Shown one piece after another: positions 1,713-59,435 of a stretch of DNA of 64,000 nucleotides; position 1 is the first letter of the stretch, and each line of letters opens with the position of its first letter. This DNA comes from an uncultured Alphaproteobacteria bacterium. Lineage in GTDB: Bacteria > Pseudomonadota > Alphaproteobacteria > Rs-D84. Position numbers and translations under genes: made by a program. The notes under the pieces are model-generated. The model was not told where the DNA came from. It ran no database searches and was given only the letters and a program-made list of their open reading frames with translations. The DNA lies in contig OZ007020.1 of assembly GCA_963931495.1 (NCBI GenBank), positions 573,880-637,879 on the forward strand. Reading direction: 5' to 3'.

Positions 1713-4112
1713 ATGGCAGATGATATAAAGCAAATTCATGAACGTGAAGAAAAATGGCAACGCCGTTGGGCGGATGCCGGTGTGTTTACCCCCAAAAATG
1801 ATGGCAGCAAGACGCCGTTTTATATGTTGGCGGAATTTCCGTTTCCATCGGGCAACGGACTGACCGGGGGACATATGTTGATTTATTCCGGTTCGGACGT
1901 TATGGCGCGGTTTCGCCGTATGCAGGGCTATGATGTTCTGTTCCCGATGGGGTTTGATTCATTGGGAATTTCGGCGGAAAACTATGCCACGAAAATTGGC
2001 AAGCATCCGTCTGTGGTTGTGCGTGAACTGATTGAAAAATTTACGCACAGTATGATAAGCATGGGTTGGTCTATTGATTTGAAATCGCAAATTGCAACGT
2101 CTGACCCTGAATATATCAAATGGACCCAGTGGATGTTTATCCAGTTCTTTAATGCGGGGTTGGCGTATAAGTCTATGTTGCCGATGAACTGGTGTCCGAA
2201 TTGTCGCACCACGTTGACCAACGAAGAACTGGAAGATGGCAAATGCAATCGTTGTCATGGGCCGGTTGAAATTCGTGAAAAAATGCAGTGGAATCTGGCG
2301 ATTACTAAATATGCCGAACGTTTGTTGGATGATTTGAAATTGGTTGATTATCCGGAACGTGTAAAGCGTGACCAGATAAACTGGATTGGTAAATCCACCG
2401 GTGCGGATGTTGATTTTATGGTCGGTGACGATGTAATGACCGTTTATACCACACGTGTTGATACTATATTTGGTGCGACATTCTGTGCGATTGCACCGGA
2501 ACACAAATTGGTTGCCAAATGGCTGGCGGATGGTCGCATTAAAAATGCGGACGCGGTGCGTGCGTATATAAAACAATCGGCCGAAAAATCTGAATTTGAC
2601 CGGACGGACGCAACAAAAGAAAAAACAGGTGTGCGTTTGGACGGCATAATGGCGCGCAATCCATTTACAGGCGATGAAATCCCCGTATTTGTGGCGGACT
2701 ATGTATTGGTGAATTATGCGCATGGTACGATTATGGCTGTGCCGGCGCACGATGAACGCGACTGGGATTTTGCGAAAAAATTCGGTTTGAAAATTATTCC
2801 TGTGATTGATGGTGGTGAACCCGACAAAGTCTGGACCGGGGATGGCATGCATATTAATTCAGGATTTTTAGATGGTATGAACAAGGCCGACGCAATCGCT
2901 GCCGCGATTAAGTATGGTGCGGAACATGGGTTTGCCCGGCCGAAAACGCGGTTCAAAATGACCGATTGGGGGTTTTCGCGCCAGATGTATTGGGGCGAAC
3001 CAATTCCATTGGTGTATTGTGAAAAATGCGGTTGGGTGCCGGTGCCTGAATCTGAATTACCGTTGATGCAGCCGTATATGGAAAATTATCGCCCGACCGA
3101 GGACGGTGAAAGTCCCCTGGCCCGCGCGACAGATTGGGTTAATACCACGTGTCCAAAATGTGGCGCGCCCGCGCGACGCGAAACGGATACTATGCCGCAA
3201 TGGGCGGGGTCATCGTGGTATTATATGCGGTATCTGGATCCGCGTAATGACAAAGAATTTTGTTCGCGGGAACAAATGGAACGCTGGATGCCGGTAAATC
3301 ATTATAATGGCGGCAATGAACACAATACGCGTCATTTGATTTATTCGCGCTTTTGGCACAAGGCGTTATATGATTTGGGATTTGTAAATACTGTTGAACC
3401 GTATAAAAAGCGGACCACAAATGGTTTGCTGATGGGGTCGGATGGTAAAAAAATGTCTAAATCCGCCGGTAATGGATTCCAGGTTGATGAAATGGTGGCG
3501 CGCGTTGGGGCCGATGCTGCGCGTACGACAGTGTTATCGTTGGGGCCGTGGGATACGAATGTGAACTGGTCAGACGGTGCGCTGGCCGGGGTACAAAGAT
3601 TCCTGAAGCGCGTGGAAAATATGGCGGATAATCTGACCGATGATGTGATGACGTCCGAACAGGAACGTTTGGTTAATCAATTAATCGCAGATATGACAGA
3701 ACGACTGGAAAATATGCGGTTTAATACGGCGATTTCCGCGATGATGGAATTTATTAACCAGTTCAGTGGCACTATGCCCCGCCCTGTGTACGAAGTATTG
3801 ATTCAAATGTTGAACCCATTCGCACCGCATTTGACCGAAGAAATTTGGGAACGTTTAGGGCACGCGGATATGTTGGTGTTTCAACCGTGGCCAACATACG
3901 ACGCCGCAAAATTGGCGAAAACAACAATGACAATTGTTGTTTCGGTTAATGGTAAACGTGCGTCTGATTTTGTGGTGCCTGTTTCTGCCACAGAAGAAGA
4001 AATTGTTGATGCCGCCAAACAGGCCGCATCCAAAAAACTGGTCGGTGCCAGTATTATCAAAACAATTGTTGTACCGAACAAGTTGGTGAATTTTGTGGTT
4101 CGCAACAACTGA
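1713..4112 (+). CDS. leuS: Leucine--tRNA ligase
   Basis: 799 aa; class I aaRS HIGH-like (PFPSGNGLTGGHM) and KMSKS (KMSKSAGNG) motifs, PMGFDSLGISAE region and Zn-knuckle CPNC...CNRC typical of LeuRS. Confidence 0.88.
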   Translation: MADDIKQIHEREEKWQRRWADAGVFTPKNDGSKTPFYMLAEFPFPSGNGLTGGHMLIYSGSDVMARFRRMQGYDVLFPMGFDSLGISAENYATKIGKHPSVVVRELIEKFTHSMISMGWSIDLKSQIATSDPEYIKWTQWMFIQFFNAGLAYKSMLPMNWCPNCRTTLTNEELEDGKCNRCHGPVEIREKMQWNLAITKYAERLLDDLKLVDYPERVKRDQINWIGKSTGADVDFMVGDDVMTVYTTRVDTIFGATFCAIAPEHKLVAKWLADGRIKNADAVRAYIKQSAEKSEFDRTDATKEKTGVRLDGIMARNPFTGDEIPVFVADYVLVNYAHGTIMAVPAHDERDWDFAKKFGLKIIPVIDGGEPDKVWTGDGMHINSGFLDGMNKADAIAAAIKYGAEHGFARPKTRFKMTDWGFSRQMYWGEPIPLVYCEKCGWVPVPESELPLMQPYMENYRPTEDGESPLARATDWVNTTCPKCGAPARRETDTMPQWAGSSWYYMRYLDPRNDKEFCSREQMERWMPVNHYNGGNEHNTRHLIYSRFWHKALYDLGFVNTVEPYKKRTTNGLLMGSDGKKMSKSAGNGFQVDEMVARVGADAARTTVLSLGPWDTNVNWSDGALAGVQRFLKRVENMADNLTDDVMTSEQERLVNQLIADMTERLENMRFNTAISAMMEFINQFSGTMPRPVYEVLIQMLNPFAPHLTEEIWERLGHADMLVFQPWPTYDAAKLAKTTMTIVVSVNGKRASDFVVPVSATEEEIVDAAKQAASKKLVGASIIKTIVVPNKLVNFVVRNN

Positions 4113-4116
4113 TAAA

Positions 4117-4136
4117 AAACGCCCGTGTGGGCGTTT
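4117..4136. terminator. Rho-independent bidirectional terminator between leuS and rpiB
   Basis: Hairpin aaacgcccgtgtgggcgttt flanked by A-run and T-run, between convergent genes. Confidence 0.7.
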
Positions 4137-4141
4137 CTTAT

Positions 4142-4588
4142 TTAAGAGATTTTTTTCAGTCGGCGCACACGGCGTTCGTTTTCATCAAATGGACTTTCCA
4201 AAAATGCACGTGCGGTTAAAAATGATACTTCTATATCAATATCATCCGCGGCCAACGCCAATACGTTGATGTCATCGTGAAAACGATCATCGCGTGCCTG
4301 GTCCGGGCGGTCACAGCGTGACGCACGGATATGGCGATAACGATTGGCGGCGATTTGCATCCCGGCGCCTGTGCCACAAATTAATATTCCGCGTGATTTT
4401 TCGTCGTCAACCATTGCATCTGCCAGCGCTTTGGCAATGTCTGGAAAATCAACCGGGGTATTGGGGTCATCCGTCCCCAGGTTCACAACACTGTATCCGA
4501 TTGCGTTTAACATTTCTGTCAGGTATAACTTTACACCAACACCACGATGGTCGGCGGCGATATATAACTTTGATATTGTTTTATTCAT
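4142..4588 (-). CDS. rpiB: Ribose-5-phosphate isomerase B
   Basis: 148 aa; LYIAADHRG ... ICGTGAGMQIAANR motifs of RpiB/LacAB family. Confidence 0.85.
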   Translation of the reverse strand: MNKTISKLYIAADHRGVGVKLYLTEMLNAIGYSVVNLGTDDPNTPVDFPDIAKALADAMVDDEKSRGILICGTGAGMQIAANRYRHIRASRCDRPDQARDDRFHDDINVLALAADDIDIEVSFLTARAFLESPFDENERRVRRLKKIS

Positions 4589-13401: not shown

Positions 13402-13412
13402 CCATGGCGTCG

Positions 13413-13499
13413 CGGATATGGCGGAACTGGTAGACGCGCTAGTTTCAGGTACTAGTGGCAGCAATGCCTTGGAGGTTCAAGTCCTCTTATCCGCACCAA
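13413..13499 (+). tRNA. tRNA-Leu (anticodon CAG), type II with long variable arm, CCA encoded
   Basis: Acceptor GCGGATA/TATCCGC, anticodon stem CTAGT/ACTAG with loop TTCAGGT. Confidence 0.9.
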
Positions 13500-13507
13500 A
13501 GTTTTTG

Positions 13508-13583
13508 GGGTTGTAGCTCAGTTGATAGAGCGCTACGTTCGCATCGTAGAGGTCGTGGGTTTGAGTCCCATCAGCTCCACCAA
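13508..13583 (+). tRNA. tRNA-Ala (anticodon CGC), G3:U70 identity pair present, CCA encoded
   Basis: Acceptor GGGGTTG/CAGCTCC (G3-U70 wobble), anticodon loop TTCGCAT, T-loop TTTGAGT. Confidence 0.88.
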
Positions 13584-13594
13584 AATTTTATTGC

Positions 13595-13616
13595 CGCCGT
13601 TTGGCGGTTTTTTATT
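13595..13616 (+). terminator. Hairpin + T-run after tRNA-Ala
   Basis: ccgcc-gttt-ggcgg followed by ttttttt. Confidence 0.5.
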
Positions 13617-13668
13617 GACAAGTATGCCACGCACGCGGTAGTATATTACGCAGATTTTTTAAGTTCTG

Positions 13669-13755
13669 GGGATATGGCGGAATGGTAGACGCTGAGGACT
13701 TAAAATCCTTTGGTCATTGCGACCGTGTGGGTTCAAGTCCCACTATCCCCACCAC
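13669..13755 (+). tRNA. tRNA-Leu (anticodon UAA), type II, CCA encoded
   Basis: Acceptor GGGGATA/TATCCCC, anticodon stem GAGGA/TCCTT loop CTTAAAA. Confidence 0.88.
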
Positions 13756-13777
13756 ACAGGTTTTAACAGTGGTATTG

Positions 13778-13854
13778 GATGAGTAGCTCAGTTGGTTAGA
13801 GCATCACGTTCACATCGTGGGGGTCGTTGGTTCAAGTCCAATCTCATCCACCAA
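13778..13854 (+). tRNA. tRNA-Val (anticodon CAC), CCA encoded
   Basis: Acceptor GGATGAG/CTCATCC, anticodon loop TTCACAT. Confidence 0.88.
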
Positions 13855-40597: not shown

Positions 40598-40604
40598 TTT
40601 TTAT

Positions 40605-40937
40605 GTACAGACGCCCGATAAGCCGGATTCTGTTCTGCCCTGGCCTTGTTGTTGCCAACCAAAACCGGGGTAGCGAGCATAATTAGTCTGCATAATGTGT
40701 TACCACAATATGTCAAGCCTTCTACCCGTCCCCTTGTTTGGGACACACATTGGGGACCTATTTGAAGTTGCTGCGCGCAGAGATTGCCCGTTTCACCCGA
40801 TATGTTTCAATCGATTCGTCACTGTTGCTCTGATCGTCGGGTTGCCCCGCCCGGTCATTAGCCGGTACGCCGTCCCATGCAGTCCGGACTTTCCTCCAAT
40901 TTTCCAAAGAAAATCAGCTATGCTCTGTTCGTCTGCA
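40605..40937 (-). ncRNA. rnpB: RNase P RNA, bacterial type A
   Basis: Minus strand reads GGAGGAAAGTCCGGACTGCATGGGAC (P4 5' strand) and ACAGAATCCGGCTTATCGGGCGTCTG (P4 3' strand/3' end); 5' GCAGACG pairs with 3' CGTCTG (P1); ~333 nt; no protein ORF. Confidence 0.8.
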
Positions 40938-54332: not shown

Positions 54333-55586
54333 ATGGCAAATGAAAATATGAATCCGTTAATTGGTGCCCAGCAACGTGTTAAAGTCGCATGTGAAAAATT
54401 GGGCATGCCGGCGGATGTTTATGAAATTCTGAAATATCCACAACGTATCATAGAGGTTTCAATCCCTGTTAAAATGGACGATGGTTCTGTTCGTACGTTC
54501 ACAGGGTTCCGGGCCCAGCATAATACCGCCATTGGCCCGTCCAAAGGTGGTGTGCGTTTCCATCCAAATGTGACGCGTGACGAAGTTGCAGCACTGTCAA
54601 TATGGATGACGTTCAAATGTTCTGTGACCGGTATTCCATATGGTGGCGGCAAAGGTGGAATAATTGTTGACCCAAAAGAATTATCTGATGGTGAACTGGA
54701 ACGTTTGTGTCGCGGATATGTTGATGCGATTTATCCGATTCTGGGTGAAAAGCGCGATGTGCCGGCGCCAGATGTTAATACCAATGGTCAAATTATGGCA
54801 TGGATGATTGACGAATATATCAAATTATCTGGCGAATCATCATTTGGTACATTTACTGGCAAACCGGTTGAATTGGCGGGTTCCAAGGGACGCAATGCCG
54901 CAACTGGTTTGGGAATTTCCATCATCATCGCCAAAGCGTTGGAAAAACAAGGTAAAGAAATGCGCGGTGCACGCATTGCCATCCAGGGATTTGGCAATGT
55001 CGGCAGTTTTACCGCAAAATGCAGCCATGATATGGGCGCGAAAATCGTTGCAATTGCAGAATGGAATACAATACTGTACAACGAAGACGGGCTGGATATT
55101 GATGCGCTGATGAAATTCAAGGCAGATAACAAAGGCAGCATCAAGGGATTTCCGGGGGCATCTGAAATCAGTACGGATGAATTCTGGGGTTTAGATGTTG
55201 ATGTGTTGTCGCCGTGTGCGATGGAAAATACAATCAACAAAGATACCGCACCACTGATTAAAACAAAGTTGGTCGTTGAAGGTGCAAATGGCCCAACAAC
55301 ACTGGATGGCGAAGAAATATTGTTGAAAAACGGTGTTACTGTTATCCCAGATATCCTGGCAAATGCCGGCGGTGTGACGGTTTCTTACTTTGAATGGGTT
55401 CAAAATCGCTATGGTTATTACTGGGGCGAAAAAGAAGTAGAAGAAAAAGAAGAAATCGCCATGAAAGATGCATTTGATGCAATTTATAAGATCAAAGAAG
55501 AATATAATGTGTCAATGCGCGAAGCCGCGTACATGCATTCTATTAAGCGTGTGGCGGGCGCAATGAAACTGCGTGGATGGTATTAA
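54333..55586 (+). CDS. Glutamate dehydrogenase (Glu/Leu/Phe/Val dehydrogenase family, ~420-aa bacterial type)
   Basis: 417 aa; GPSKGGVRFHP catalytic Lys motif; GFGNVGS Rossmann motif. Confidence 0.85.
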   Translation: MANENMNPLIGAQQRVKVACEKLGMPADVYEILKYPQRIIEVSIPVKMDDGSVRTFTGFRAQHNTAIGPSKGGVRFHPNVTRDEVAALSIWMTFKCSVTGIPYGGGKGGIIVDPKELSDGELERLCRGYVDAIYPILGEKRDVPAPDVNTNGQIMAWMIDEYIKLSGESSFGTFTGKPVELAGSKGRNAATGLGISIIIAKALEKQGKEMRGARIAIQGFGNVGSFTAKCSHDMGAKIVAIAEWNTILYNEDGLDIDALMKFKADNKGSIKGFPGASEISTDEFWGLDVDVLSPCAMENTINKDTAPLIKTKLVVEGANGPTTLDGEEILLKNGVTVIPDILANAGGVTVSYFEWVQNRYGYYWGEKEVEEKEEIAMKDAFDAIYKIKEEYNVSMREAAYMHSIKRVAGAMKLRGWY

Positions 55587-55609
55587 GACGTATGTTTGGT
55601 GTAAATAAA

Positions 55610-55632
55610 AATCCCCGTTTGGGGATTTTTAT
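55610..55632. terminator. Bidirectional terminator between gdh and lipoprotein gene
   Basis: aatcccc-gttt-ggggatt + ttttatttttg. Confidence 0.7.
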
Positions 55633-55652
55633 TTTTGTTTGTTTTGCCAGAA

Positions 55653-56066
55653 TTATTCGGAACAAACTTCAACCGCATAGAATTGATTATTGTTCATGTC
55701 ATCCGCGGTGCCACAGAACAGACGGAATCCGCATTTGTTTTCTGGTGTTCCCATCATTTGCATTGTGTTGTCTGGGATTATGTTCAACAGACATTTGCCT
55801 TCGGTAACATATTGTGCCGGATTGTCAATTGACATAAATGCAACAGTTTGTTTTTTATTTGCAATTTCACGCAGAACTTCTGTTTCTGGCAATGCGATGA
55901 CATAGTCGCCACTGGTCCCCAATGCAACAATTTGTGTCACGCCGTTTGTGGCCGCATCCTGTTGGATTTCTGTTTGGATGGCATTAAAGTCTTCGGGTGT
56001 TGGTGCGGGGGCATCGCATGCCGCCAATGTCACAGCAGCCAAGGCAAATAAAGATAATTTTTTCAT
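55653..56066 (-). CDS. Lipoprotein, unknown function
   Basis: 137 aa; MKKLSLFALAAVTLAAC lipobox. Confidence 0.5.
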   Translation of the reverse strand: MKKLSLFALAAVTLAACDAPAPTPEDFNAIQTEIQQDAATNGVTQIVALGTSGDYVIALPETEVLREIANKKQTVAFMSIDNPAQYVTEGKCLLNIIPDNTMQMMGTPENKCGFRLFCGTADDMNNNQFYAVEVCSE

Positions 56067-56124: not shown

Positions 56125-56153
56125 TTGACTTTTTTATTTTTTACTGCATAATA
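56125..56153 (+). promoter_or_regulatory. Sigma70-like promoter of rpsP operon (-35 TTGACT, 17-nt spacer, -10 ATAATA/CATAAT) with ~140-nt leader
   Basis: Hexamers at 56125-56130 and 56148-56153. Confidence 0.4.
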
Positions 56154-56294: not shown

Positions 56295-56765
56295 ATGGCA
56301 ACTGTTATCAGATTGGCGCGTTTCGGTGCAAAAAAGCGTCCGTATTATCATGTCGTGGTTACAGATTCACGCAATGCGCGTAATTCTGGAAATATTTTGG
56401 CAACTGTGGGAAAATATAACCCGATGTTACCACGCGATAATGAAAATCGTGTTGTGTTGAATGTTGATGAGGTCAAGTCTTGGTTGGCCAAGGGTGCAAA
56501 ACCATCAGATCGTGTATATCGCTTTTTGGCGAATGCCGGATTGGTTGCAGCGCGCGTTGTCCCGAACCAAACGAAAAAGAATCAACAGTCTGAAAAGACA
56601 TTGATGAAAATCAAAGATAAACAAGAAAAATTGGCAAAAATAGCCGAAGAAAAAGCAGCCGCCGAAGCAGCCGCCAAGGCCGCTGCCGAAGCGCCAGCCG
56701 AAGAATCGGCACCGGCCGCCGCAGAAGATGCGCCAGCCGAAGAATCTGCGCCAGTTGCGGAATAA
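56295..56765 (+). CDS. rpsP: 30S ribosomal protein S16 with ~70-aa Lys/Ala/Glu-rich C-terminal extension
   Basis: MATVIRLARFGAKKRPYYHVVVTDSRNARN; tail AEEKAAAEAAAKAAAEAPAEESAPAAAE. Confidence 0.85.
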   Translation: MATVIRLARFGAKKRPYYHVVVTDSRNARNSGNILATVGKYNPMLPRDNENRVVLNVDEVKSWLAKGAKPSDRVYRFLANAGLVAARVVPNQTKKNQQSEKTLMKIKDKQEKLAKIAEEKAAAEAAAKAAAEAPAEESAPAAAEDAPAEESAPVAE

Positions 56766-56772
56766 TTTTGCG

Positions 56773-56795
56773 TATGCCCGGGGGTAACCCGGGCA
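56773..56795 (+). terminator. GC-rich hairpin + U-stretch immediately after rpsP (intra-operon attenuator/partial terminator)
   Basis: atgcccggg-ggtaa-cccgggcat then ggttttctg. Confidence 0.5.
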
Positions 56796-56827
56796 TGGTT
56801 TTCTGTTGAATAAAGGATTGTGTCAAT

Positions 56828-57016
56828 ATGCCAAAATGTCCGGTGAATCCTGATATAGAATGTGAATATTCTTTTCGTGCGTGGGAATGTCGTCGTCAAA
56901 TTGATTTTGCCGCCGCGCGTAATTATGAATACTATATTTATGAAAATGACGGTTGCCCTGCTATGCCGGAATATTGCAGTCGTTTGTACAAATTAAAGAA
57001 ACAGCAGCAGAGGTAG
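56828..57016 (+). CDS. Small Cys-containing protein (6 Cys in 62 aa), inserted in rpsP operon
   Basis: MPKCPVNPDIECEYSFRAWECRR...DGCPAMPEYC; 3 nt before next ORF. Confidence 0.35.
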   Translation: MPKCPVNPDIECEYSFRAWECRRQIDFAAARNYEYYIYENDGCPAMPEYCSRLYKLKKQQQR

Positions 57017-57019
57017 ACG

Positions 57020-57262
57020 ATGCCAAAGAATAACAATCTTTGTCCATATGATATACTCGGTTCGTTGGCGTGTGATATGATATATCGTGACCAAGAACTG
57101 TATCGGCAAATGGATGTGCAATTGAAGTCAGGGGCAAAAATAAATATGTTTTTCAGTGCGGATTTATGCGCATGCGCGTGCAATTCGGAATTGTGTTCGC
57201 GGTATACAGAACATTTGATACGTAATTTGCGAAACTGTAAGAATCATTCAAATGGCCGATAA
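57020..57262 (+). CDS. Small Cys-containing protein (80 aa), inserted in rpsP operon
   Basis: MPKNNNLCPYDILGSLACDM...CACACNSELC; 3' end overlaps rimM start by 11 nt. Confidence 0.35.
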   Translation: MPKNNNLCPYDILGSLACDMIYRDQELYRQMDVQLKSGAKINMFFSADLCACACNSELCSRYTEHLIRNLRNCKNHSNGR

Positions 57263-57716
57263 TAAAAAAATCTTGGTTGGTAAAATTGTCGCACCCCAGG
57301 GAATCCGTGGCGAGTTGCGCGTGAATACATATACAGCAAATCCAACAGATATGCGCGATTTGCGTGTCATGTCGTCGCATTTTGCCGATGGTGCATTCCA
57401 TTTTGTGCGCGTGGTTCCATCGTCGTCGGTTATCATTGCGCACGTTGATGGTGTAAATGATCGGAATGCGGCTGAATCATTGCGTGGTACAGAATTGTTT
57501 ATAAATCGTGATGATTTGCCACAACTTGGTCCGGGGGAATATTACCAGGCGGATTTGGTTGGTATGCGGGTCATGCGAAATGGCGCGCAAATTGGTGTGG
57601 TGGATAATGTACAAAACTATGGTGGCGGTGATATCCTGGAACTGGATAGTGGTGATTTGATTGCGTTTAACAGTGTTGATGTAGATACAGAAAATAAAAC
57701 AATTTATATTCGGTGA
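57252..57716 (+). CDS. rimM: Ribosome maturation factor RimM
   Basis: ILVGKIVAPQGIRGELRV N-terminus, PRC-barrel C-terminus. Confidence 0.85.
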   Translation: MADNKKILVGKIVAPQGIRGELRVNTYTANPTDMRDLRVMSSHFADGAFHFVRVVPSSSVIIAHVDGVNDRNAAESLRGTELFINRDDLPQLGPGEYYQADLVGMRVMRNGAQIGVVDNVQNYGGGDILELDSGDLIAFNSVDVDTENKTIYIR

Positions 57717-58099
57717 TGAATATGAAACAGAAAATGCAAGGTTTGCCAAGAACTTTTATATCGGAATCCGAGAATTTTATTTATGCGTATATTCCGAAAT
57801 TGCCGGTTGTTTGCAAGGATGGCAGACGATATGCGTCGTGCGTATTTGTGTGCCCACAGTTTATGAATTATGATGTGGATAAATATGGACGGCGGATTAT
57901 TCCGAATTATGCGGTTTGTCCGTATGCCACCGAATTGACGGGACGTCCGGGCCAATGCGATGGCAAACGTGTTTGTTTGAATGGCGAAATTATAAGTGCG
58001 CTGTACAGATATAATCCTGTGAAACAAATAGGTGTTCCGGTACATGAATGGCAAATGATTAAGGCGGATTTAGCAAAAAGGAATCAAAATGGCAGATAA
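57713..58099 (+). CDS. Small Cys-rich protein (128 aa; 8 Cys incl. CxxxxxxC/CxxxxC pairs), inserted between rimM and trmD
   Basis: CKDGRRYASCVFVCPQF...AVCPYATELTGRPGQCDGKRVC; start overlaps rimM stop (ATGA). Confidence 0.4.
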   Translation: MMNMKQKMQGLPRTFISESENFIYAYIPKLPVVCKDGRRYASCVFVCPQFMNYDVDKYGRRIIPNYAVCPYATELTGRPGQCDGKRVCLNGEIISALYRYNPVKQIGVPVHEWQMIKADLAKRNQNGR

Positions 58100-58355
58100 A
58101 AAATCAGGTATTCAAGTGTTTTTCAAATTTGGTGATTATGGTTATAATGATTTGGTCGCAACGTGCGGCGATGATGCAGCGTGCCCGATATTTGGTTTAT
58201 TGGATGCGTGTAAAACACACTATACAACATATCGGCACATTCCAGGTAAATTGCGCGCTGTCAGTGTCGCGGCGCTGAAAGATAAAGACGCAACAAACAG
58301 CATGATAAATTTATCTGAATACTTATGCACAAAATGCAAAAATCGGATTCGTTAA
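58089..58355 (+). CDS. Small Cys-containing protein (88 aa), inserted between rimM and trmD
   Basis: ATCGDDAACPIFGLLDACKTHY...YLCTKCKNRIR; stop 1 nt before trmD start. Confidence 0.4.
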   Translation: MADKKSGIQVFFKFGDYGYNDLVATCGDDAACPIFGLLDACKTHYTTYRHIPGKLRAVSVAALKDKDATNSMINLSEYLCTKCKNRIR

Positions 58356-58356
58356 A

Positions 58357-59043
58357 ATGCACTTTAATATACTGACCATTTTTCCAGAAATGTTTCCGGG
58401 CACGTTGGGCGGCGGGGTTGTTGGTCGCGCTTTGTCTAATGGAACATGGTCATATGATGCAATAAATATTCGTGACTTTGCGCATGATAATTACGGCAGT
58501 GTTGATGATGAACAATTTGGCGGTGGTGTTGGCCAGGTTATGCGCCCAGACGTACTGGGTGATGCAATTGATTCAATTAAAAATCGTGGCAAAATTATAT
58601 ATTTTTCACCGCGTGGACCGCAACTGACGCAAAAAAAAGTACGCGAATTTGCCGCCGATAAAAATGCAAATTATACATTACTGTGTGGACGGTACGAAGG
58701 AATTGATCAACGAATCATTGATGAATATGATATAATGGAATTATCTGTTGGCGATTACATACTGTCGGGCGGCGAAATCGCCGCGCAAGTTTTTATTGAC
58801 AGTGTCGTTCGCGTGATGGATAATGTGCTGGGCGGTGGCGCAGATGCCACGCGTAATGAAAGTTTTGAAATCGGGGGGTTAGAATGGCCGTTGTATACCC
58901 GCCCGTCGGCATGGCGTGGACGTAATGTCCCAGAAGTCCTGCTGTCCGGTCACCACGGCAATATTGAACGGTGGCGGAAACAACAATCGGACGAAATAAC
59001 AAAACAACGTCGTCCGGATTTAATAAAGGAAAATGAAAAATGA
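58357..59043 (+). CDS. trmD: tRNA (guanine37-N1)-methyltransferase
   Basis: [15 protein letters not shown]...[10 protein letters not shown]...[17 protein letters not shown]/TrmD motifs. Confidence 0.9.
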
Positions 59044-59435
59044 GCATTATTAAAAAAATTGAACAGGCGCAAGTTGAAAAATTGCGTGGCGATAAGAAAA
59101 TCCCTGCTTTCAAGTCTGGGGATACTGTCAAGGTGCATGTCCGCATCAAAGATGGTGATAAATTCCGTATCCAGGTTTTTGAAGGTGTCGTAATCGCACG
59201 CGATGGTGGCAATGGTAATAATGCGTCGTTCACAGTACGTCGTGAATCATATGGCGTCGGTGTAGAACGCAAGTTCCCACTGTACAGCCCGGCGATTGCC
59301 AAAATTGAAAAAGTGCGCACCGGTAAGGTACGTCGTGCAAAATTGTTCTTCTTGCGCGGATTGTCCGGCAAAAAGGCGCGCATCGTAGAAGATTTGTCTG
59401 CGGTGGCGGCGGATAAAGCAGCAGAAGCAAAATAA
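59040..59435 (+). CDS. rplS: 50S ribosomal protein L19
   Basis: 131 aa; [16 protein letters not shown]...[11 protein letters not shown]...FPLYSP. Confidence 0.9.

Follow-up and report, generated by a model that had tools for sequence, protein, structure and literature searches.

Organization of the trmD operon

The rpsP-rimM-trmD-rplS cluster (the trmD operon) is a textbook case of genes that stay together and are essential, and its contiguous form is typical of Proteobacteria. In a 64-kb stretch of contig OZ007020.1 from an uncultured Alphaproteobacteria bacterium (hereafter 'the window', that is, the whole stretch of DNA analysed), rpsP, rimM, trmD and rplS were found in that order and all on the + strand (Pfam E values from 3e-21 to 3e-43; for rimM see Table 1). 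Their contiguity is broken by two open reading frames (ORFs) in each of two internal gaps: ORF1 and ORF2 between rpsP and rimM, and ORF3 and ORF4 between rimM and trmD. All four lie on the operon strand and fill their gaps exactly. The distances between consecutive cistrons (next start minus previous stop end, minus 1) from ORF1/ORF2 through trmD/rplS are +3, -11, -4, -11, +1 and -4 nt, respectively, with ORF2 overlapping the start of rimM by 11 nt. An earlier note on this DNA had proposed this placement, and the coordinates confirm it; the overlapping or near-abutting junctions that it described (-11 to +3 nt) and the MPK start and Cys-richness shared by ORF1 and ORF2 hold as well. The note also said that signal peptides are lacking, and a hydrophobic N terminus was found in none of the four ORFs.

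Table 1. Genes, embedded ORFs and candidate regulatory elements of the trmD operon in the window.
Feature	Positions	Strand	Description
rpsP (bS16, Ala/Glu-rich C-terminal tail)	56295-56765	+	PF00886, E 3e-21
ORF1, family A, subfamily A1	56828-57016	+	62 aa, start MPK, 5 Cys, end ...QQQR
ORF2, family A, subfamily A2	57020-57262	+	80 aa, start MPK, 7 Cys
rimM (30S maturation factor)	57252-57716	+	PF01782, E 2e-15, plus PRC barrel
ORF3, family B	57713-58099	+	128 aa from GTG; 125-128 aa by start choice
ORF4, family C	58089-58355	+	88 aa, end CKNRIR
trmD (tRNA m1G37 methyltransferase)	58357-59043	+	PF01746, E 1e-42
rplS (bL19)	59040-59435	+	PF01245, E 3e-43
GC-rich hairpin with U-rich tail	56773-56807	+	terminator scan match, 3' of rpsP
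Candidate sigma-70-type promoter, TTGACT-16-CATAAT	56125-56152	+	upstream of rpsP, 10/12 consensus positions

ORF1 is preceded by an AAGGA Shine-Dalgarno (SD) sequence. The start of ORF3 is ambiguous, with candidates at GTG 57713, ATG 57716 (127 aa) and ATG 57722 (GGTGAT ahead); gene callers on conspecific contigs start it at ATG 57716, and an exact look-up of the protein with the GTG start returned no record.

The embedded ORFs are genuine protein-coding genes

Under a chance-ORF model with a stop probability of 0.068 per codon (local base composition), the probability that a frame stays open is 0.012 for 62 codons, 0.0035 for 80, 0.00012 for 128 and 0.0020 for 88. A codon-usage log-likelihood, for which 23 long genes of the window served as the training set, placed the annotated frame first of the six for all four ORFs, with scores of 0.22, -0.04, 0.05 and 0.20 for ORF1 to ORF4, respectively (genes, 0.31 +/- 0.14; non-coding mean, -0.51).

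The earlier note had named conservation and dN/dS (the ratio of non-synonymous to synonymous substitution rates) in relatives as the way to check the ORFs, and homologs of all four were found. A genome scan with ORF3 retrieved L001, a metagenome-assembled genome (MAG) of an uncultured Alphaproteobacteria bacterium that has the same operon and synteny, in which amino-acid identity to the window is 71% for ORF3, 67% for ORF4 and 88% for rpsP, and only 39% for ORF1 while it reaches 94% for TrmD. Nei-Gojobori dN/dS against L001 was 0.18 for ORF3 and 0.19 for ORF4, the level of rimM (0.18), with 0.09, 0.08 and 0.07 for rpsP, trmD and rplS, respectively. Within the species, as represented by the window plus six conspecific contigs (L029-L034, ~99% identical; seven sequences in all), the corresponding diversity ratio piN/piS was 0.06 for ORF4, 0.16 for ORF2, 0.29 for ORF3 and 0.28 for rimM. 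Moreover, gene calls for ORF1 exist in many conspecific contigs (P0041-P0052), and the ORF4 homologs P0031-P0037 are called genes in 60+ contigs. All four ORFs are thus genuine conserved protein-coding genes, and ORF2, ORF3 and ORF4 are under purifying selection.

Two further variations were seen among the conspecific contigs: the long Ala/Glu-rich C-terminal extension of bS16 is strain-variable in length (156-160 aa; window 56295-56765 and L029-L034), and a 6-nt indel occurs in a CACAC (TGCGCA) repeat of ORF2, a gene with variants listed for L032 and L030/L033.

Three families of small cysteine proteins

The ORFs were grouped into three families: (i) family A, comprising ORF1 and ORF2; (ii) family B, comprising ORF3; (iii) family C, comprising ORF4. 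In family A, residues C8, C18, R23, E26, R29, Q30, C52 and C59 are invariant, and the conserved Cys of ORF1 are C4, C12, C43 and C50. Subfamily A1 includes ORF1, a68 of L001 (E 1e-11) and an uncalled ORF in L004, and subfamily A2 includes ORF2, a80 of L002 (E 1e-22) and a84 of L007 (E 1e-11); ORF1 and ORF2 are old, diverged paralogs. For family B, searching 1.84 billion representatives exhaustively with HMMER gave 30 homologs at E<1e-3, which share the motif PKTF..E...YVP...C.CV..C.QF..YPVD.WGRRIIP..A.CPY...C.G..C.NG and the invariant C43, C47, C69 and C82. Family C, with ORF4, d88 of L001 (67% identical), d87 of L004 (35%) and P0031-P0037 as members, has five invariant Cys (C26, C32, C41, C80 and C83) and a conserved end, YLCxxCKNR[IV]R.

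Each family therefore has at least four Cys conserved across homologs and is a Cys4 family in that sense. The pairs of the 'CxxxxC type' that the earlier note saw in ORF3 and ORF4 do exist, but their spacing is not uniformly so: ORF3 carries C43-x3-C47, C69, C82 and C88, and ORF4 carries C26-x5-C32, C41 and C80-x2-C83. Over the ORFs, the spacings are C-x3-C, C-x5-C, C-x6-C and C-x9-C, with a canonical CxxC only at C80-x2-C83 of ORF4. Neither two CxxC-type knuckles nor a match to a zinc-ribbon profile or fold was found, and for this reason the ORFs are not filed as zinc ribbons. Of the note's 'novel small zinc-binding proteins', the novelty is supported and each family has four to five invariant Cys, while two zinc-ribbon knuckles and a profile or fold match were not found. 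Such Cys sets are consistent with a metal site, which would most likely be Zn(Cys)4, with Fe-S or disulfides as other possibilities.

Families A to C gave no credible match in Pfam, NCBIfam, PHROGs or PADLOC, or among PDB sequences and profiles; all PHROGs matches of the ORFs had E values of at least 0.075, and for the KH domain or any known operon-embedded Pfam or NCBIfam model nothing beyond noise level appeared at E<=1. Paralogs of ORF1 to ORF4 were not found elsewhere in the window, and literature searches for small Cys-rich proteins linked to rimM or trmD, and for the accessions, returned nothing relevant. The lineage-specificity suspected earlier is borne out: families A to C are previously undescribed, lineage-specific and restricted to one clade of uncultured gut-associated Alphaproteobacteria. 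An AlphaFold2 (AF2) model of ORF3, built with 23 homologs, reached a predicted local distance difference test score (pLDDT) of 80.6 and a predicted template modelling score (pTM) of 0.72, and is beta-rich with a C-terminal helix.

Many unclassified small ORFs in the relatives follow one design, with a pair of Cys near the N terminus (often C...CP), a CxxC towards the C terminus and a tail that is basic. A single superfamily of all small Cys ORFs together with A, B and C was considered and not supported, as the family hidden Markov models find only their own members and hhalign probabilities were <=33%; from the shared design, common ancestry is plausible but undemonstrated.

The array members also occur fused to one another. 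In L031 (1746-2174), the stop of ORF1 is changed from TAG to TAC, yielding a 142-aa ORF1-ORF2 fusion; P0023 has two B domains plus a CxxC...CxxC tail; and in P0027 and P0029 family B is joined to an N-terminal domain that L008 encodes upstream as an ORF of its own. Read in the 'Rosetta-stone' manner, such fusions hint that the array proteins act together.

The inserts turn over rapidly and can be lost

Besides the window, family B was found in 11 distinct contexts (L001, L002, L004, L007, L008, L009, L011, L012, L013/14, L015 and L016), all of them in the trmD operon and, wherever the flanks are readable, at the rimM-trmD junction. Family scans of IMG/VR and of JGI metagenomes found no relatives of family B, and tblastn against phage (INPHARED) and plasmid (PLSDB) records gave no match.

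The arrays differ between relatives in the number of small ORFs (from 0 to 5) and also in their order and identity (Table 2). A RimM-based metagenome scan further revealed other small Cys4 ORFs at the rimM-trmD junction in L020/21, L022/24 and L028, and contiguous operons in L018, L023 and L025. L020/L021, L022/L024 and L028, together with L019, are gut- or rumen-type alphaproteobacterial lineages in which small but unrelated ORFs occupy these junctions: at rimM-trmD they are Cys4 ORFs 56-112 aa long, and at rpsP-rimM a Cys-free ORF of 78-93 aa with the motif DNHIDEI.Y.

Table 2. Small ORFs embedded in the trmD operon of the window and its relatives (A1, A2, B and C, families and subfamilies; x, unclassified small ORF; -, none).
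Locus	rpsP-rimM gap	rimM-trmD gap
Window	A1, A2	B, C
L001	A1	x, B, C
L002	A2	B
L004	A1	B, x, C
L007	A2	x, x, x, B
L014	-	x, B
L016	-	B

The contiguous operon of L018 (ORMR01000054, human gut metagenome; 3001-4150) has a rimM-trmD gap of 1 nt. In a neighbour-joining tree of RimM plus TrmD, the window, L001, L004, L018 and L002 form a group supported by 100% bootstrap, and at no time do the six B-bearing genomes make up a monophyletic group without L018. L018 is thus nested inside the family B clade, and therefore its contiguous operon represents a secondary and clean loss of the inserts. Within the species, ORF2 has a nonsense allele in L029 (1932-2105) and a Cys59Arg (C59R) allele in L032. Given this loss and these alleles, the insert genes are accessory and dispensable, and not core.

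A hairpin downstream of rpsP

The hairpin that follows rpsP (56773-56797) consists of a 5-nt loop on a stem of 10 bp, 7 of them G-C; it is followed by GTTTTCTGTT and folds with a minimum free energy of -24 kcal/mol (z = -3.2 versus shuffles), so that in the window both the stem-loop and the U-tract of an intrinsic terminator are present. It is invariant across the seven conspecific sequences. A hairpin, often of the form GCCCGGG-N4-6-CCCGGGC, lies 3' of rpsP in almost every relative with a spacer, with differing stem sequences. The tail that follows is GUUGAAUUAU in L001, AAAAAUUAU in L004 and UAUACAGUUA in L018, where the U-tract is absent, a U-rich tail being found in some relatives only. 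Because the U-tract is missing in these three, the conserved feature is the hairpin and not a canonical intrinsic terminator.

The hairpin was also considered as an element specific to the inserts, and this was rejected, as it occurs in relatives counted as insert-free (L011, L014, L016, L018 and L027). Thus, of the 'GC hairpin with U-stretch' read in the earlier note as an attenuator, the hairpin and its U-rich tail are real, and its tie to the inserts falls away. It is rather a clade-wide rpsP 3' element, which is likely to act as a leaky terminator or a 3' stabiliser separating abundant bS16 from low-abundance downstream products.

The promoter-like sequence upstream of rpsP is a weak candidate, since the region holds 21 promoter-like matches where 13.6 +/- 4.2 are expected from shuffles, which is not clearly above expectation. 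Elsewhere in the window, a near-perfect 14-bp AT-rich hairpin at 55603-55634, a candidate bidirectional terminator, lies between two convergent genes, one for glutamate dehydrogenase (54333-55586) and the other small and lipoprotein-like (55653-56066, - strand). Directly downstream of rplS, L001 (7777-9270) and L002 (7513-8983) carry a metallophosphoesterase gene and an AbiEii-family gene, which the window lacks there, DUF2155 coming next to rplS instead. The window also holds a tRNA cluster (13412-13853: Leu-CAG, Ala-CGC, Leu-TAA and Val-CAC) and a class A RNase P RNA (- strand, 192.6 bits), the two being placed jointly at 13412-13853 and 40603-40936.

Arginine endings and shared junction sequences

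A terminal Arg was found in 28 of 38 distinct embedded ORFs (window plus L001-L028), whereas of 108 ordinary genes at these loci 9 have one (Fisher p = 3e-14); the 38 ORFs are phylogenetically non-independent but represent more than ten unrelated families; the stop-proximal sites of the window are 57011-57016, 57257-57262, 58094-58099 and 58350-58355. The terminal codon is AGA in 14, CGA in 4 and AGG in 3 of the 28 (21 together), and these codons account for 3.9, 5.9 and 1.1% of the Arg codons of the window, respectively; since several of the loci are AT-rich, AGA is perhaps not rare in them. The -11 overlap (ATGGCAGATAA) accounts for five of the Arg endings, and in three more the AGGTAA is at the same time a Shine-Dalgarno sequence, with the remaining ones explained by neither. 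In the account given via PMC3985003, termination in E. coli is stalled by rare Arg codons that precede the stop (Hayes, Bose and Sauer 2002, PNAS 99:3440). The Arg endings may stem from selection for a basic C terminus, or from a pause at a rare codon ahead of the stop, by which re-initiation would be favoured.

The ORF2/rimM (57236-57270) and ORF3/ORF4 (58073-58107) junctions share ~17 nt (AAATGGCnGATAAnAAAAA), and both read ...NGR* / MAD(N)KK; it is because of this shared stretch that ORF4 begins with MADKK, like the MADNKK of RimM. The shared stretch could be left over from a duplicated junction, or could reflect convergence of the start context.

Proposed role of the embedded genes and its alternatives

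Taken as a whole, the explanation that we favour, and hold to be probable with some reserve, is that the inserts are clade-restricted accessory genes for small Cys proteins that sit in the operon and act as modulators. That they encode real accessory Cys4 proteins is the part in which we have high confidence, while a ribosome- or tRNA-associated role is tentative and on balance doubtful. Families A to C would have colonised both internal junctions of the rpsP-rimM-trmD-rplS operon, to be transcribed from upstream of rpsP with partial read-through of the hairpin. Because each cistron starts -11 to +3 nt from the previous stop, ribosomes would be handed over by serial termination-reinitiation through ORF1, ORF2, rimM, ORF3, ORF4, trmD and rplS, which would set the output of ORF1 to ORF4 at RimM/TrmD-like levels. 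The products would be compact cytoplasmic Cys4 metal (probably zinc) proteins with basic tails, cooperating as dispensable modulators. Their most likely activity would be to bind RNA, ribosomal particles or the products of neighbouring genes such as RimM and TrmD.

Several points weigh against this explanation. The codon-usage scores of ORF2 (-0.04) and ORF3 (0.05) are at the low edge of real genes, and piN/piS of ORF1 is ~1 in the seven strains, from few sites. Most Cys spacings are other than canonical CxxC knuckles, and structural matches are absent: structure prediction, which the earlier note had proposed with zinc-ribbon folds in mind, did yield a confident model of ORF3, but this has no Foldseek neighbour in PDB or BFVD, and the single-sequence AF2 model of ORF4 failed (pLDDT 38). 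The RNA-binding idea is founded on the basic tails and the genomic location. The tight junctions may be what any insertion upstream of the essential trmD must keep, and the dispensability and rapid turnover of the inserts argue against a dedicated role in ribosome biogenesis.

The same turnover bears on a second explanation, in which the ORFs are passenger or conflict genes (selfish, anti-phage, anti-toxin or of some other niche) lodged in the operon for constitutive expression, and in which insertions coupled to the essential trmD are tolerated and hard to lose. The changing number, order and identity of the array, from 0 to 5 ORFs between close relatives, are no less compatible with accessory or passenger genes than with factors dedicated to biogenesis, and the unrelated small Cys4 ORFs at the same junction in L020, L022 and L028, the clean loss in L018 and the fast evolution of ORF1 (39% identity where TrmD has 94%; piN/piS ~1) all point the same way. 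Membership of a defence, phage or plasmid family was, however, not found in PADLOC, PHROGs, IMG/VR, INPHARED or PLSDB, or by Foldseek against BFVD. Moreover, ORF3 and ORF4 evolve at the rate of rimM rather than at that of an arms race, and family B was never seen outside this operon position (11 of 11 contexts). At the junctions, flanking repeats or mobility genes were not noticed by eye, no dedicated repeat search having been made. We regard passenger genes as an unlikely explanation, albeit one to be taken seriously.

Cys-containing paralogs of ribosomal proteins have been proposed to serve in zinc storage, and zinc is limiting in the gut. By analogy, Cys4 proteins made in proportion to growth might store or deliver zinc; the invariant sets of four to five Cys in all three families, the co-expression with ribosomal protein genes implied by the layout and the origin of the organisms from gut-type samples (L018) would suit such a metal reservoir or buffer. 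Yet family B keeps many residues other than Cys (P28, F50, G59 and the WGRRIIP motif), which argues for a specific surface rather than mere chelation, and a zinc-regulon (Zur) signal was not seen, no search aimed at it having been made. The idea comes purely by analogy, and we consider it improbable.

More improbable still is that the ORFs serve as translational spacer cistrons with irrelevant products, in which translation itself relays or tunes the flow of ribosomes to rimM and trmD and a pause at a rare Arg codon before the stop promotes re-initiation. The junction distances would suit such a relay, as would the 28 Arg endings among 38 ORFs (14 with AGA, 3.9% of the Arg codons of the window), the E. 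coli stalling in the account cited above and the piN/piS of ~1 in ORF1. But dN/dS lies at 0.18-0.19, and in ORF2 to ORF4 the Cys and the motif residues stay invariant down to 30-45% identity, which means that selection acts on the proteins; L018, L023 and L025 manage without any such cistron, and AGA is perhaps not rare in the AT-rich loci. Finally, chance open frames in expanded intergenic spacers, for which the codon-usage scores of ORF2 and ORF3 (near the 95th percentile of non-coding frames) and the lack of database families might speak, are rejected with near certainty because the ORFs are conserved across relatives at 35-71% amino-acid identity with dN/dS ~0.18, in addition to which the open-frame probabilities are 1e-2 to 1e-4 each and family B has 30 homologs.

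The modulator explanation also has a bolder version, which we think has a small chance of being right: an evolving tandem array of micro metal-binding proteins, with members gained, duplicated, shuffled, fused and lost, that together form a hitherto undescribed complex working on the translation apparatus, for instance as partners or regulators of RimM, TrmD or the nascent 30S subunit, with the near-universal Arg-stop (often AGA-TAA) as a programmed pause handing ribosomes onward. If so, it would offer a new class of ribosome or tRNA-modification accessory factors, a new fold and a new cis-signal of coupling. If the results hold, a gut clade uses the junctions of the trmD operon as a landing pad for small Cys proteins of fast turnover, and core translation operons can gain lineage-specific cistrons provided that translational coupling is kept. 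Three unannotated small-protein families are added, one of them with a confidently predicted fold that has no known neighbour; their constant neighbours, RimM and TrmD, point towards 30S maturation and m1G37 methylation, and the Arg-stop hallmark could reveal a rule on how coupled cistrons end.

Comparison with known systems

The hairpin after rpsP resembles intra-operon leaky terminators and stabilising hairpins, such as T1 of B. subtilis, in that a GC hairpin stands immediately 3' of rpsP, which is highly expressed, and precedes rimM and trmD, which are of low abundance, with a U-rich tail in the window; it differs in that the U-tract is absent in L001, L004 and L018. The Arg endings recall the stalling sites of Hayes, Bose and Sauer, as AGA, CGA or AGG stands right before the stop in 21 of the 28 Arg-terminated embedded ORFs. 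In E. coli, however, such stalling is known as a cause of tagging by transfer-messenger RNA and not as a coupling device, whereas here there is only a statistical pattern, which arises in part from overlaps, SD-like AGGTAA and AT-rich genomes.

Like the small Cys4 zinc-ribbon and zinc-finger proteins (including bL31, bL32, bL33, bL36, bS14 and bS18), the embedded proteins are 60-130 aa long, basic and encoded among translation genes, and have four invariant Cys as two pairs. Unlike them, they match no zinc-ribbon or ribosomal-protein profile and have a CxxC knuckle only at the C terminus of ORF4, and the ORF3 model is without a Foldseek neighbour.

The closest parallel comes from Firmicutes, whose version of the operon contains ylqC (khpA) and ylqD; for YlqD, too, no function is known. 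In B. subtilis, the operon ylxM-ffh-rpsP-ylqC-ylqD-rimM-trmD-rplS carries these two lineage-specific genes, with an internal terminator, T1, after rpsP-ylqC that separates the rpsP part from the rimM part (PMC10100781). In both cases, the rpsP-rimM interval of this operon holds small genes that are lineage-specific. However, the two sets have no sequence relationship (KH or other Pfam matches were not found here), and the genes described here are Cys-rich, vary in number between close relatives, belong to one alphaproteobacterial clade and also occupy the rimM-trmD junction, which is not occupied in the Firmicute version. Lineage-specific small proteins in a ribosomal operon would thus be known in kind, while the families are new and the fold, judging from the ORF3 model, is possibly new as well.

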